Virus record (IMG/VR): IMGVR_UViG_648276660_000002
Origin: a virus
Taxonomy: Duplodnaviria; Heunggongvirae; Uroviricota; Caudoviricetes
DNA length: 6,659 nucleotides
Reading direction: 5' to 3' (one strand)
Under the pieces are notes generated by a model. The model saw only the letters and a program-made list of their open reading frames with translations. It was not told the DNA's origin and did not search any database. Numbering within the stretch: the stretch's first letter is position 1; every line of letters begins with the position of its first letter. The position numbers and the translations under genes were made by a program. Shown here in pieces: positions 93-6,659 of the stretch.

Positions 93-121
93 AAAAATAA
101 AGGCTACCATCAGGCAGCCTT
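93..121 (-). terminator. Putative intrinsic terminator on the leftward transcript, overlapping the ral stop codon
   Basis: On the minus strand, plus coords 113-121 and 100-108 pair as a 9-bp stem (one G-U pair) with a 4-nt loop, followed by a U-rich tract (plus 93-99 is AAAAATAA). Read by eye; no folding energy computed. Confidence 0.4.
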
Positions 122-310
122 GTTATTCTGTTTACCAAGTTCTCTGGCAATCATTGCCGTCGTTCGTATTGCCCATTTATCGACATATTTCCCATCTTCC
201 ATTACAGGAAACATTTCTTCAGGCTTAACCATGCATTCCGATTGCAGCTTGCATCCATTGCATCGTTTGAATTGTCCACACCATTGATTCTTATCAATAG
301 TCGTAGTCAT
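110..310 (-). CDS. ral: Restriction-alleviation protein Ral-like, 66 aa
   Basis: 66-aa ORF directly downstream of N in the PL operon, start MTTTIDKNQW, with CGQFKRCNGCKLQSEC cysteine cluster. Size, position and sequence match my recollection of lambda Ral (memory, not searched). ATG at 310..308 is preceded by AGGA. Confidence 0.8.
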   Translation of the reverse strand: MTTTIDKNQWCGQFKRCNGCKLQSECMVKPEEMFPVMEDGKYVDKWAIRTTAMIARELGKQNNKAA

Positions 311-2803: not shown

Positions 2804-2947
2804 ATGACAAAACAACTCAGTCCTTACCAGGACAAAATTCACAAACACATACTACGTGATCGCTTCCTGTCCAGCTTCAAGCAGCCTGGTCGATTCCGGG
2901 CTGAGTTGGAAAAAGTGAAGCTGATGCAGAAGGAGAAAGGTCATGAG
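2804..2947 (+). CDS. Small basic ORF, 47 aa ([48 protein letters not shown]), between cII and the O-like gene
   Basis: AGGAG at 2794..2798, 5 nt before the ATG. The stop overlaps the O-like start (ATGAGTAA). Below the ORF-track size cutoff; found by manual translation. Function unknown. Confidence 0.4.
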
Positions 2948-3803
2948 TAATCTTGCAACCGTAACACATTTAAGGCCTTCACAACGGCCTGTGGAGCGTC
3001 GTGTGGCAGAAGTTGAAGATGGTTATACCCGTCTTGCAAATGCCCTGTATGAAGAGCTTATCGGCGCAGATTTAACGAAAAATCAGAGCAAGGTTGCCCA
3101 CGCCATATGCCGTAAAACATACGGCTACGGTAAAAAGATGGATCGCATCTCTGATAGTCAGTTAGCTCAAATTACCAGGCTGCCAAGACAGAAGGTAAAC
3201 AAGGCCAAGAATGAGCTTATCGCGATGAAGGTTATCCTTCGCGAAGGCCAGCAAATCGGTCCTAACAAGAACATCGAAGAATGGCAAATCGAAGGGTGTC
3301 ACTACTCTGGTGATAATGTCACTACATTGGTGACAAAAAGTGTCACCAAAACGGTGACAGCGCTGTCACCAAAACAGGGACACACAAAAGAAACTATTAC
3401 AAAAGAAAAAAGAAATAATAAAAACACTATGTCCGAAAGTGTTCGGACGGAGTGTGAAAAATCACCTGACCGTCACGAAGAAATCGACAAGGCATTCGAG
3501 GAAATATTCTGGTGTGCAGGCATGCGGAAAGCCGGGAAGAAAAACGCAGCTTCGGCATTCAGAACACAGTTCAGGGAATGGCGTAAAACTACCAGGGGTA
3601 CGGCAAGCGAGTTTGCTACGATGCTGGCAGAAGACATCGCATGCAGGAATGGTAAGCAGTTCGGATTCGACAGGTTGTTACCATCGAGCTACCTGAACGG
3701 TCAACGCTGGAACGACGAGAAGCCAGAAACTATTCAACCACAATCCAAACCATCATCCGCAATCACCGTATCGAAAACTGGCTACGTGTTTTTCGACAGG
3801 TGA
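2943..3803 (+). CDS. O: Replication initiator, lambda O-like N-terminal origin-binding domain with divergent C-terminus, 286 aa
   Basis: N-domain matches lambda O in motifs [50 protein letters not shown]. The gene contains the iteron/AT-rich origin. The C-terminal third does not resemble the P-binding domain of lambda O as I recall it. Confidence 0.88.
3309..3428. other. Origin of replication inside the O-like gene: palindromic iterons (3309..3370) plus AT-rich region (3381..3428)
   Basis: GGTGAtaatGTCAC (3309..3322), GGTGACAaaaagTGTCACC (3329..3347), GGTGACAgcgcTGTCACC (3353..3370), then ACAAAAGAAACTATTACAAAAGAAAAAAGAAATAATAAAAACA. Same layout as ori-lambda. Confidence 0.75.
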
Positions 3804-3910: not shown

Positions 3911-5791
3911 ATGACGCCAAGTGAACTTAGCGACCTGCTTTGGGCGCAGGTTGACAGGGTGGCTCCGCACCTGTTGCCAAACGGCAAGAAAGAGGGGCAT
4001 GAGTGGGTTGCCGGTAACGTCAACGGCGACAAGGGAAACAGCCTTAAGGTCAACCTTAGCGGCAAGAAAAAATGGGCTGATTTCGCCGAGGGAGACGGCG
4101 GTGACATGCTTGATTTGTGGATGGCATGTCGTGGAATTAACCTGCATCAGGCTATGCAGGAAGCGAAAGCATTTCTCGGTATCAAGGATGACGATCACCA
4201 TTTCGATGCCAAACGTGAGAAAAAATTCTCCAGACCTGATCGCAAGAAAATCGCCCGCTACGTTACCAGAACAGAATCCCATCTTGAGTACCTGCAATCG
4301 CGTGGCATATCGCCAGAAATCGTAAAGCGCTACGAGGTTGTCAGCGGCAAGGTGTGGAATGGAGAGCGGGAACTGGATGCTCTGGTGATTCCGTACAAAC
4401 GCGATGGTGAGTTGTTGCAGGTCAAGCGAATCAGCACTGAGCGCCCGGACGGGAAGAAAGTCATTATGGCAGAAGGTGATTGCGAACCTTGTCTGTTCGG
4501 ATGGCAGGCTCTGGACGCTGGCGTGAGGGCGGTTGTGCTTTGCGAAGGCGAAATTGATTGTATGAGCTATGCGCAATACGGCATCTCGGCGTTATCCGTG
4601 CCGTTTGGTGGCGGGAAAGGCGCTAAGCAGCAGTGGATTGAGTTTGAGTATCACAACCTCGACAGGTTTGAGGAAATATTCATCTCGATGGACGTTGATG
4701 ATGTTGGTCGTGAAGCCGCAAGGGAAATCGCAAGCCGACTCGGTGAACATCGTTGCCGTCTTGTTACTCTGCCGTACAAAGACATCAACGAATGCCTGAT
4801 GAACGGTGTTACCGAGGATGAAATCTGGCAGTACATCGGCACGGCATCCTACTTCGATCCTGAAGAACTCTACAGCGCGCGAGAGTTTTACCAGGACACT
4901 ATCAACGCTTTCTACGGCAAGCAGCAGTATCTGTTTAATCCACCGTGGGAATCTCTGGCAGATAAATTCCAGTTCCGTGAGGCCGAGTTGACGCTGGTCA
5001 ATGGTGTGAACGGTCACGGAAAAACGGAGGTTGTCGGGCATATGGCACTTGAGGCAATGCGTCAGGGTGTGAAGACGTGCATCGCGTCACTTGAGCTGAA
5101 GCCTGGTATTCTCCTTAAGCGCCTTACCCGTCAGGCGACGTGCTGCAAGATGCCGCCAGTGCTGGAAATTGACTCTGCATTTAAATTTTATGACGAAAGA
5201 CTTTGGGTGTTTGGCCTGACCGGAACGGCGAAAGCCGACAGGCTGATCGAAATATTCGACTACGCTCGCCGCCGATACGGGATCCAGTTATTCATCATCG
5301 ACAGCCTGATGAAATGTGGCATAGGCGACGATGACTATAACGGGCAGAAGGCGTTTGTTGACTCGATTTGCGACTTCAAAAACAAAACAAACTCCCACGT
5401 CATTCTCGTTACTCACTCCAGAAAAGGAGACAGCGAAGAAAAACCAACCGGGAAAATGGACGTAAAAGGCTCTGGAGCGATAACAGACCTGACAGACAAC
5501 CTTTTCATCATCTGGCGTAACAAGGCTCGCGAGAGAGCGTTACAGAGAGTTCAGAGTGGTGAAAAGATGTCAGAGAAGGACGAACAGCTACTGGCATCTC
5601 CGGCATCTGTTTTGATGCTTGAAAAACAACGTAACGGCGAAGGTTGGGAAGGTGGTGTCCCGTTGTTCCTTGACGAGCAATCGCACCAGTTCCTGCAACT
5701 TGAATCAGGATCGCCATATAGCTACATCGCCAATATGCCGAAATCGGAATATGACGAGGCGTGGCGACAGGAAAACGTGACGGAGTATTAA
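3911..5791 (+). CDS. Bifunctional primase-helicase: DnaG-type Toprim primase fused to a RecA-fold, probably SF4 DnaB/T7-gp4-like, helicase; 626 aa
   Basis: Toprim acidic motifs CEGEID (4541..4558) and DVDD (4691..4702); Walker A GVNGHGKTE (about 5003..5029); Walker B LFIIDSL (5288..5308). GAGGG upstream of the ATG. Occupies the slot of lambda P. Confidence 0.9.
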   Translation: MTPSELSDLLWAQVDRVAPHLLPNGKKEGHEWVAGNVNGDKGNSLKVNLSGKKKWADFAEGDGGDMLDLWMACRGINLHQAMQEAKAFLGIKDDDHHFDAKREKKFSRPDRKKIARYVTRTESHLEYLQSRGISPEIVKRYEVVSGKVWNGERELDALVIPYKRDGELLQVKRISTERPDGKKVIMAEGDCEPCLFGWQALDAGVRAVVLCEGEIDCMSYAQYGISALSVPFGGGKGAKQQWIEFEYHNLDRFEEIFISMDVDDVGREAAREIASRLGEHRCRLVTLPYKDINECLMNGVTEDEIWQYIGTASYFDPEELYSAREFYQDTINAFYGKQQYLFNPPWESLADKFQFREAELTLVNGVNGHGKTEVVGHMALEAMRQGVKTCIASLELKPGILLKRLTRQATCCKMPPVLEIDSAFKFYDERLWVFGLTGTAKADRLIEIFDYARRRYGIQLFIIDSLMKCGIGDDDYNGQKAFVDSICDFKNKTNSHVILVTHSRKGDSEEKPTGKMDVKGSGAITDLTDNLFIIWRNKARERALQRVQSGEKMSEKDEQLLASPASVLMLEKQRNGEGWEGGVPLFLDEQSHQFLQLESGSPYSYIANMPKSEYDEAWRQENVTEY

Positions 5792-5820
5792 ATGACCATC
5801 TACATCACTGAGCTTGTAAC

Positions 5821-5852
5821 AGGCCTGCTGGTAATCGCAGGCCTTTTTATTT
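5821..5852 (+). terminator. Intrinsic terminator after the primase-helicase gene (tR2-like position)
   Basis: Perfect 8-bp stem AGGCCTGC (5821..5828) / GCAGGCCT (5837..5844), 8-nt loop, followed by TTTTATTT (5845..5852). Confidence 0.6.
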
Positions 5853-5867
5853 GGGGGAGAGTAAATC

Positions 5868-6074
5868 GTGGTTGAGTTAATTTTCTCTGCATTGAGGATT
5901 CTCGGTGCTATGTGGATGGTGGTGACGTTCATTGTGGTTGCCAGCAGTTTTATCCGGTTGGTGGGTGAAGGTAAAGACATGGTGGGTGTGCTTTTCGGTA
6001 GCATTCTAATGTGGGTGATTATCGGTGTTGCGCCTGTCGCTGTAGCAAAAATGGCGTGGCGTTTTGTGAGTTGA
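5868..6074 (+). CDS. Small hydrophobic protein with two predicted transmembrane segments, 68 aa, GTG start
   Basis: MVELIFSALRILGAMWMVVTFIVVASSFIRLVGEGKDMVGVLFGSILMWVIIGVAPVAVAKMAWRFVS. GGGGAGAG lies 6 nt upstream of GTG 5868. G-rich first codon positions look coding. Function unknown. Confidence 0.4.
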   Translation: MVELIFSALRILGAMWMVVTFIVVASSFIRLVGEGKDMVGVLFGSILMWVIIGVAPVAVAKMAWRFVS

Positions 6075-6091
6075 ACTGAGGGTAAGTACCG

Positions 6092-6406
6092 ATGGACGAA
6101 TCAAGAAAGCAGTTTGAGGAATACGTTGCCAAAAAATTGAGATTACCATTCGAGATGATAACCGAGGCAAGAAATGGTGATAGGTACTTCGCATTTTCAA
6201 GCATGGATATTCGTCACTCCTTAAATGAGTGGTGGACTTTATGGCAGGCATCGCGAGCAGCTATTGAAATAACCGCGCCAAAGTTTATCGACAGCAGAGA
6301 AGCATTAGCCAAAGGGTTTACTGTTGATTATTCCAATGGCTTCGGTGATGCAATGGATGCTTATGAGGAAAACATCAGCGCTGCTGGAGTCAAAGTGAAG
6401 GAGTGA
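6092..6406 (+). CDS. Hypothetical protein, 104 aa, in the ren/nin position
   Basis: ORF with GAGGG about 10 nt upstream, same strand as the operon. Not recognisable as lambda Ren from memory. Confidence 0.6.
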   Translation: MDESRKQFEEYVAKKLRLPFEMITEARNGDRYFAFSSMDIRHSLNEWWTLWQASRAAIEITAPKFIDSREALAKGFTVDYSNGFGDAMDAYEENISAAGVKVKE

Positions 6407-6408
6407 GT

Positions 6409-6573
6409 ATGAGCGCATACGAAGAAATCATGTTAGCCCTGCGATTCTTTTTCGGTGTGGAAGAAGATGAAAACGTAAATGAGATTATCGGGCAAGACCA
6501 TGACCCGATAGGGACTATTGCAGCTGCACTTGACGATTACAGGAGCGTAAATGGTGAGGAAACTAACGTTTGA
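6409..6573 (+). CDS. Small highly acidic protein, 54 aa (MSAYEEIMLALRFFFGVEEDENVNEIIGQDHDPIGTIAAALDDYRSVNGEETNV)
   Basis: ATG 2 nt after the stop of the 104-aa ORF, with GGAG upstream; its 3' end overlaps the ninB start by 23 nt. Found by manual translation, below the ORF-track cutoff. 13 of 54 residues are D/E and only 2 are K/R. Confidence 0.4.
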   Translation: MSAYEEIMLALRFFFGVEEDENVNEIIGQDHDPIGTIAAALDDYRSVNGEETNV

Positions 6574-6659
6574 ACTAAGAAGCCCCATCCATCAGCAGAA
6601 CGCCATTCAAGCTATCCAGCAAATTCTTCCAGACCCAACCAAACCAATCGTAGTAACCA
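6551..6659 (+). CDS. ninB: NinB (Orf-family recombination mediator), N-terminal fragment; continues past the window end
   Basis: MVRKLTFELRSPIHQQNAIQAIQQILPDPTKPIVVT matches lambda NinB N-terminus (MKKLTFEIRSPAHQQNAIHAVQQILPDPTKPIVVT, from memory). AGGAG 5 nt upstream of the ATG. Confidence 0.8.
   Translation, partial: MVRKLTFELRSPIHQQNAIQAIQQILPDPTKPIVVT

Follow-up and report, generated by a model that had tools for sequence, protein, structure and literature searches.

Two small accessory genes that open the nin region of an Escherichia coli lambdoid prophage: an acidic 54-residue protein encoded in the cassette slot that separates a phiTE_015-family gene from ninB

What are the two small open reading frames (ORFs) that lie between the replication genes and ninB in a 6,659-nucleotide (nt) stretch of viral DNA (IMG/VR record IMGVR_UViG_648276660_000002, Caudoviricetes; the whole stretch is referred to as the window), and what might their products do? 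An earlier note, made from the sequence without database searches, described here a 104-amino-acid (aa) ORF followed 2 nt later by a 54-aa ORF with 13 D/E and 2 K/R whose end overlaps ninB, a description that was reproduced when coordinates and composition were recomputed, and proposed that the two form a co-expressed pair in the position of lambda ren, the acidic member being perhaps a DNA mimic or an inhibitor of host defences. We find that both ORFs, here ORF104 and ORF54, are real accessory genes that encode proteins and open the nin region, that ORF54 occupies a cassette slot with a phiTE_015-family gene before it and ninB behind it, a slot which elsewhere is empty or holds other small genes, and that a functional link between the two protein families has independent support in adjacency, fusion and a flanking paralogue, with other findings speaking against a strict pairing. 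The features on which the argument turns, all on the + strand, are these:

5821..5854, + strand: intrinsic terminator, an 8-bp GC-rich stem (5821-5844) and then TTTTATTT
5868..6074, + strand: 68-aa hydrophobic ORF (PHROG 1165; grand average of hydropathy 1.56), context outside the ORF104/ORF54 pair
6092..6406, + strand: ORF104 (PHROG 343 / PF26207; WP_000344572.1)
6398..6411, + strand: cassette junction AAGGAG-TGA-GT-ATG, with the Shine-Dalgarno (SD) sequence in the last two sense codons of ORF104
6409..6573, + strand: ORF54 (PHROG 1603; WP_001277269.1)
6541..6545, + strand: ninB SD sequence AGGAG, within ORF54, from sequence inspection
6551..6659, + strand: 5' part of ninB (Orf-family recombination mediator; PF05772, PHROG 72), which continues past the window end

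ORF54 extends from ATG 6409, 2 nt after the ORF104 stop, to TGA 6571-6573. The longest possible start is GTG 6403 (56 aa), whereas ATG 6409, which is also the start chosen by the Prokaryotic Genome Annotation Pipeline (PGAP; WP_001277269.1, hypothetical protein), is preceded by a perfect AAGGAG SD sequence at 6398-6403 with a 5-nt spacer. Because ninB starts at ATG 6551 (PGAP: GTG 6554), the overlap between the two genes is 23 nt (20 nt with the PGAP start). The window holds 77 ORFs of at least 30 aa and the length of ORF54 alone is not above chance; it is nevertheless a gene, because it has homologues, in-frame insertions and deletions and a ratio of nonsynonymous to synonymous substitution rates (dN/dS) that indicates purifying selection. 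The match to PHROG 1603 covers residues 1-53 against profile positions 1-53 of 54 (E=1.5e-32) and identifies ORF54 as a full-length member of this family (which includes BTP1_048, S107 orf69 and KP13-16 gp128), with 83-91% identity to its counterparts in Salmonella phages. No function has been assigned to the family, which is very small: a set of 5.8 billion proteins contains 24 clusters of it, and a set of 1.84 billion contains 29 representatives at 50% identity. The earlier note had let its case hang on the conservation of this reading frame in related prophages, and the frame is indeed conserved under purifying selection: dN/dS lies between 0.06 and 0.3 with dS saturated, and the insertions and deletions of the family are in frame and located in an acidic loop.

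The charge analysis that the same note had called for established acidity as a conserved property of the family. ORF54 itself (13 D/E, 2 K/R, 1 H, no Cys) has an isoelectric point (pI) of 4.05 and a charge of -11.4, the net charge is between -5 and -12 in all 43 family members, and nine positions (5, 6, 18, 20, 25, 30, 32, 42 and 43) carry D or E in at least 80% of them. Most of the residues that never vary (A10, L11, A40, Y44 and three consecutive aromatic ones at 13-15) are hydrophobic, and the AlphaFold2 model is a three-helix bundle with a predicted local distance difference test score (pLDDT) of 84. The conserved domain comprises residues 1-46 and the tail, residues 48-54, is encoded by the ninB overlap; across the family this tail (..EETNV; ..SASQRSNQK elsewhere) is the ninB 5' region read in another frame. 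Scans with Pfam, NCBIfam and PADLOC returned no match for ORF54 or ORF104, sequence and profile searches of the PDB gave only noise for both (E at least 0.5), and Foldseek of the ORF54 model against BFVD gave nothing with E <1, no PDB or BFVD structure resembling the model.

Homologues of ORF54 were found in lambdoid and P22-like prophages of E. coli and Salmonella (BTP1, S107), in Cedecea and Dryocola, and also in an element with a nearby integrase (locus L057). Others, with 49-61% identity (H39, H40 and L009), lie between nrdD and nrdG of virulent Klebsiella phages of 137-147 kb. The homologue of Klebsiella phage KP13-16 (Stephanstirmvirinae; L009 2201-2656) follows a 96-aa ORF with a Cys-rich C-terminus, which we considered as a relative of ORF104 and rejected on the grounds that it is not detected by the hidden Markov model (HMM) and is only 20% identical.

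ORF104 extends from ATG 6092 to TGA 6404-6406 and has a pI of 5.06. It matches PHROG 343 over residues 1-104 (E=3.6e-26), its homologues fall into 367 clusters, and the precomputed PF26207 assignment is present on 120 of 120 homologues among the matches listed; ORF104 itself gave no match when run against Pfam-A and NCBIfam, and its PF26207 membership rests on PHROG and on transfer from the homologues. PGAP labels close variants as 'phiTE_015 family' and ORF104 as a hypothetical protein. By tblastn, ORF104 is 32.7% identical to phiTE_015 over 94% of its length (E=2e-4), and it also matches Sf6 gp48 (69% identity), ST64T Orf-86 and phages of Yersinia, Pseudomonas and Klebsiella; one homologue is annotated as 'similar to P22 EaD'. 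By sequence, then, ORF104 is a member of the PF26207 / phiTE_015 / PHROG 343 family (Sf6 gp48, ST64T Orf-86, D3 Orf41-like, 'P22 EaD-like'), whose core motifs and tail it shares and of which it represents one particular N-terminal and one C-terminal variant; no function has been assigned to this family either. The description of the two ORFs as unrecognised consequently had to be dropped, since both belong to catalogued families (PHROG 343/PF26207 and PHROG 1603) and appear in RefSeq as hypothetical proteins.

The alignments of the ORF104 family contain an N-terminal SR[KE]xFE, a central WxASRAAI and a C-terminal AG[IVL]xVK motif, and R55, I58, I95, G99 and K103 are invariant in one of them (A3). 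While the core ESRKQFE...W..WQASRAAIEI and the tail IxAAG[VI]KVKE are conserved, the N-terminal and C-terminal segments are variable, and the family appears hyper-mosaic, with exchangeable N- and C-terminal modules around the WQASRAAIEI core and the AAG[IV]KVKE tail. Among copies preceding ORF54 there are at least 23 variants with <70% identity (loci L005-L063). The pLDDT of the AlphaFold2 model of ORF104 is 77. Sf6 nin deletions affecting genes 46-58 are viable (PMC5630979), and Sf6 gene 48, the ORF104 homologue that is 69% identical, lies within this range. A literature search found no papers for 'phiTE_015', 'PF26207', the WP accessions of ORF104 and ORF54 or the BTP1 locus tags.

Three observations tie the two families together. 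At approximately 49 of 55 ORF54 loci the gene immediately before ORF54 belongs to the ORF104 family, and the divergent ORF54 lineages of L059, L062 and L063 (55-88% identity) are also found behind such a gene, joined by an ATGA overlap and not by the usual junction. The two domains also occur in a single protein: in P0151 (99 aa) an ORF54 domain (hhalign 99.5%) is fused to the ORF104 core and tail (79%, E=1.5e-5), and this fusion is present on 8 contigs, the 4 shown being from 4 different samples and at the same genomic position, after O and DnaB genes. Finally, Salmonella prophages L052-L054 have the order paralogue, ORF104-family gene, ORF54, ninB; the divergent ORF54 paralogue (..SVIFDALKAYYEVEEDDSVWEIFNQADDQIEEIANALKVLGE) lies directly upstream of the ORF104-family gene, at 2535-2666 of L052 and at 2535-2720 of L053 and L054.

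ORF54 has other fusion partners as well. Its domain is found N-terminal to DUF551 (PF04448, 54 bits in P0152) or to another small C-terminal module in P0150, P0152, P0154 and P0146, and because of these fusions we regard ORF54 as behaving like a shufflable domain; a search of the literature on DUF551 and anti-defence returned nothing relevant. Two more specific relationships were considered and rejected: a toxin-antitoxin-like pair, in view of the fact that ORF104 mostly occurs without ORF54 and that both proteins are acidic, and a role of ORF54 as a NinB-specific partner, in view of its occurrence without an adjacent ninB.

The slot itself is delimited by a junction, ...GGAGTCAAAGTGAAGGAG TGA GT ATG AG..., which is kept whichever gene follows the tail of the ORF104-family gene. 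It precedes ORF54, a Lar-family gene (E. coli NCTC9112; L141), a gene for a 61-aa membrane protein, HK022_60 and ST64T orf-98; in mEp235, ninB follows it directly, with TAA and a different 2-nt spacer. This junction looks like a joint for both translational coupling and recombination. When the content of the slot after the ORF104 tail was surveyed, ninB followed directly at 44 loci, ORF54 at 55 (a count from a biased sample), the 61-aa membrane protein at 16, an HK022_60-like gene at 4 and a Lar-like gene at 2, besides others. Among the 80 IMG/VR loci closest to ORF104, ORF54 is present at 4, ninB follows directly at about 40 and the membrane protein is found at 16, and the exact combination of ORF104 and ORF54 occurs in 1 of 5426 complete E. 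coli genomes. The gene content thus varies between conserved flanks, as in a phage accessory region or hotspot.

Two of the Lar slot-mates are well identified, one in E. coli NCTC9112 (TIGR03655, 62 bits) and the other, phiTE_014, behind phiTE_015 in the unrelated 142-kb virulent phage phiTE (PF14354, 44 bits). A strong enrichment of Lar beside ORF104-family genes was rejected, as the downstream genes of 80 distant loci are diverse and few of them are Lar-like. The arrangement in phiTE (L144 2495-3173) differs in detail, phiTE_015 overlapping the start of phiTE_014, a 133-aa Lar-like protein, by 8 nt; a NinX-like gene, phiTE_018, is also near, and because the three occur together, nin-type small genes cluster in this virulent myovirus too. 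The slot of HK022 (L003 2597-2851; also L089, L093, L142 and L164) holds HK022_60, whose 84-aa product has a weak match to FlbD, a protein of flagellar and swarming motility (25.5 against a threshold of 24.7 bits), a domain that one would not expect in an early protein of a phage.

How the pair is placed relative to ren and to the early transcripts follows from the terminator. A strong intrinsic terminator lies directly 3' of the primase-helicase gene and upstream of ORF104 and ORF54, and the homologous site of mEp235 is annotated as a rho-independent terminator. By analogy, the element at 5821-5854 would be the counterpart of lambda tR2 and would mark the start of the N-dependent nin region, followed by the 68-aa ORF, ORF104, ORF54 and ninB. 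The claim that the ORFs occupy the ren position is therefore only loosely right: they are downstream of this terminator, and phage H-19B has an annotated ren together with the block, the DNA homologous to the window from 5792 onwards beginning exactly at the end of ren. Since H-19B carries both, we interpret the block of the 68-aa ORF, ORF104 and ORF54 as the first part of the N-dependent nin region and not as a substitute for ren, and we reject a replacement of ren by ORF104 and ORF54; lambda has nothing at the corresponding place. Neither ORF matched any Ren family in Pfam or PHROG, and the homology to Ren or to a named nin protein on which the earlier note had wished to be checked was looked for in Pfam, PHROG and NCBIfam and not found. 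The ORF104 homologue of H-19B (AF034975.3; L002 2800-3156) is unannotated and split over two frames (HMM positions 1-21 and 25-103), either by a frameshift or by an old sequencing error.

The SD sequence embedded in the end of ORF104 indicates that ORF54 is translationally coupled to it. No promoter-like site was found in 5600-6659, including the interval between the two ORFs, and because the ORF54 SD sequence lies inside the last ORF104 codons with no such site between the genes, their co-expression is very likely. That part of the proposal of a co-expressed pair is upheld, whereas the tight spacing from which it was drawn is generic, as the same junction stands before ninB, Lar and other genes. 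If the analogy with tR2 and the nin region of lambda holds, ORF104 and ORF54 would be delayed-early genes whose transcription from pR depends on antitermination by N.

Considering these data together, our preferred explanation, to which we assign a probability of roughly 0.4, is that ORF54 is an acidic binder which works with the phiTE_015-family protein in counter-defence or host takeover. ORF54 would fold into a compact bundle of three helices that buries its hydrophobic side chains, with an FFF aromatic patch and, at about nine conserved positions of the surface, carboxylates. Through this patch and the acidic surface it would most likely bind, stoichiometrically, to a basic region, possibly one that contacts nucleic acid, on a protein of the host or of a competing element. 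In some phages ORF54 is fused to the phiTE_015-family protein, which probably works with it or presents it; the likely purpose would be to counter defences or take over the host during lytic growth, and in laboratory hosts that lack such defences it would be dispensable. The support for counter-defence is circumstantial and consists of Lar in the same slot of an E. coli prophage and of phiTE, a mosaicism of ORF104 typical of conflict genes, and the viable deletions of Sf6.

Several findings weigh against this explanation. Many small phage proteins are acidic, and the literature search yielded no experiment or publication on either family. ORF104 is mostly found without ORF54 (which is present at 4 of 80 close loci), ORF54 follows unrelated genes at no fewer than five loci (L049, L057, L060, L009 and L058), and its additional fusion to DUF551 suits a generic shufflable module equally with a specific partnership. 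Lar is rare in the slot, at 2-3 of about 200 loci, and the genes downstream of the 80 distant ORF104-family loci are very diverse (Ead/Ea22-like, helix-turn-helix (HTH) and membrane proteins); for these two reasons guilt by association with Lar is weak. An extension of the same idea, in which the phiTE_015-family protein and ORF54 constitute a previously unrecognised two-part counter-defence module, an acidic effector on a hyper-mosaic scaffold with tail and junction marking the cassette slot, appears to us rather unlikely. For the present, both proteins are best filed as members of catalogued families with no assigned function, encoded by uncharacterised lambdoid nin-region accessory genes for which counter-defence is a plausible candidate role, and what goes beyond the routine is modest: the conserved junction, the fusion of ORF54 with ORF104 and the presence of ORF54 in unrelated virulent phages.

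The alternatives differ chiefly in how they read the adjacency of the two genes. It is possible, though we hold it somewhat less credible than the acidic binder, that ORF54 is a self-contained protein in a recombination-prone slot and that its adjacency to ORF104 reflects a junction for cassette exchange and not a functional pair. The same junction before at least five unrelated downstream genes, the scarcity of ORF54 at close ORF104 loci, the ORF54 homologues behind unrelated genes, the highly diverse downstream partners of distant ORF104-family genes and the DUF551 fusion all fit such independent cassettes; yet the adjacency survives a different junction in L059, L062 and L063, the fusion of ORF54 with the ORF104 core is natural and comes from at least four samples, and an ORF54 paralogue stands on the other flank of an ORF104-family gene. 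An unlikely alternative dispenses with defence and makes the proteins modulators of phage development or host physiology, as accessories of replication or of NinB recombination or in tuning the lysis-lysogeny decision, as has been reported for small proteins of the exo-xis and ea regions. The location between replication genes and ninB, the translational overlap onto ninB, the frequent neighbourhood of ORF104-family genes with Ead/Ea22-like genes and the homologue labelled as similar to P22 EaD speak for it. It sits poorly with the presence of ORF54 in phages lacking an adjacent ninB and between the nrd genes of virulent Klebsiella phages, and with the extreme mosaicism of ORF104 and a patchy distribution, features more to be expected of conflict genes; the fold matches do not rise above noise.

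We consider it improbable that ORF54 mimics DNA as Ocr, ArdA or T7 gp5.9 do, probably as a dimer whose carboxylates would stand in for the phosphate backbone and block a defence enzyme that binds DNA, for example RecBCD or a type I restriction enzyme. The conserved charge and the positionally conserved D/E residues would suit this reading, as would the presence of Lar in the slot of some relatives. An acidic DNA mimic of about 50 aa also has a precedent in T7 gp5.9. Against these points, ORF54 resembles none of the known mimics, a globular three-helix bundle of 46 residues is small for a DNA-like array of charges, the most conserved residues are hydrophobic or aromatic, and the prophage already carries Ral and an anti-RecBCD gene. 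The proposal of DNA mimicry or anti-defence thus retains circumstantial support in the charge, the early timing and a slot sometimes occupied by Lar, but no sequence or fold similarity to a known inhibitor was found. As for the notion that ORF54 arose by chance or serves only as a translated leader or spacer which couples ORF104 to ninB, its shortness and the dictation of its last 7 codons by the ninB 5' region could be quoted in favour, but the low dN/dS at saturated dS, the conservation in unrelated phage backgrounds without ninB, the confident fold prediction and the domain fusions effectively refute it.

If ORF54, alone or with the phiTE_015-family protein, does neutralise a host defence, it would represent a new and very small inhibitor family, and the AAGGAG-TGA-GT-ATG junction after phiTE_015-family genes would be a genomic marker with which to search the prophages of enterobacteria, Shiga-toxin phages and Salmonella BTP1 among them, for further cassettes of this kind. 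If the two-part module were real, the slot, with ORF54, Lar, the 61-aa membrane protein, the FlbD-like protein and others, could be mined as aca has been for anti-CRISPRs, and such mining could give new anti-restriction and anti-defence proteins across lambdoid, P22-like and large virulent phages. If the function is not counter-defence, the pair is one more item of mosaic, non-essential nin-region cargo, and the value of the analysis is descriptive: a swappable slot, a hyper-mosaic ORF104 family and domain fusions.

A P22-like/lambdoid prophage of E. coli MS 198-1 (NZ_CP146687.1) matches the window with 100% identity; the window comprises the immunity, replication and early nin regions of this prophage, the remainder of which is P22-like. 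Upstream of the features given above it contains:

110-310, - strand: Ral antirestriction protein (PF11058, 160 bits), leftward operon
389-805, - strand: antiterminator N (PF11438), leftward operon
1019-1495, - strand: secreted-looking ORF without annotation, with a signal-peptide-like N-terminal segment (PGAP: 134-aa hypothetical protein)
1420-2052, - strand: cI-type LexA-family repressor, after which come Cro, CII and a DUF2740 protein
2943-3803: O-type initiator
3911-5791, + strand: toprim primase-helicase, 626 aa

The replication module has a fused toprim primase and DnaB-like helicase (3911-5791) in place of the P-type loader of lambda; in other phages the block of the 68-aa ORF and ORF104 stands after DnaB-type helicases or after P and ren, and the module boundary is exactly the upstream stop codon. 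The 68-aa ORF (5868-6074) opens the block, with the tR2-like terminator on one side and ORF104 on the other; conserved counterparts exist in mEp235, HK022, Stx phages and Salmonella prophages, and its product may be a membrane-acting accessory protein. The ORF at 1019-1495 adjoins cI downstream in the same orientation, at the position of lambda rexAB, and has no Pfam match; by analogy it is a candidate for an exclusion or conversion gene expressed from the prophage. Besides Ral and N, the MS 198-1 prophage has an anti-RecBCD gene further to the left, and because of this gene and Ral it already possesses several counter-defence genes. No RNA family was found anywhere in the window by an Rfam search, and the GC content of the ORF104/ORF54 module (0.43-0.46, against 0.47-0.52 in its neighbours) does not mark it as clearly foreign.

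Compared with known systems, the pair resembles lambda Ren in being non-essential and in having replication genes on one side and ninB on the other, but there is no homology, and Ren is upstream of tR2 whereas ORF104 and ORF54 are downstream of the tR2-like terminator. With Lar of the Rac prophage and Ral of lambda, ORF54 has in common that they are small early phage proteins, and with Lar also the slot, Lar-family genes following a phiTE_015-family gene in both E. coli NCTC9112 and phage phiTE. Lar, however, is a Cys4 zinc ribbon, while ORF54 has no Cys and no sequence similarity to it, and NCBIfam and Pfam, including the Lar models (TIGR03655 / PF14354) that do detect the NCTC9112 and phiTE slot-mates, give no match to ORF54; Ral is encoded elsewhere in the window (110-310, - strand). 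The acidic DNA-mimic inhibitors (T7 Ocr/gp0.3, ArdA, T7 gp5.9, Ugi) are likewise small, early and of strong conserved negative charge. ORF54 shares this high conserved charge but differs in being a predicted globular three-helix bundle with a prominent aromatic patch, and its sequence and fold do not place it in a known mimic family. On sequence grounds, ORF104 and ORF54 thus stand outside the Ren, Lar, Ral, Ocr and ArdA families.

A further comparison is with phage accessory regions and anti-defence hotspots (a concept of Silas et al., bioRxiv 10.1101/2023.04.06.535777) and with aca-marked acr loci. ORF104 and ORF54 motif strings were not found in the text supplements of the Silas et al. screen or of the related Nature Communications paper, and the conserved neighbour here is not an HTH regulator like Aca. 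What the locus has in common with these regions is a pair of conserved flanks, the tail of the phiTE_015-family gene and ninB, which enclose interchangeable small genes, some of them known anti-restriction genes.
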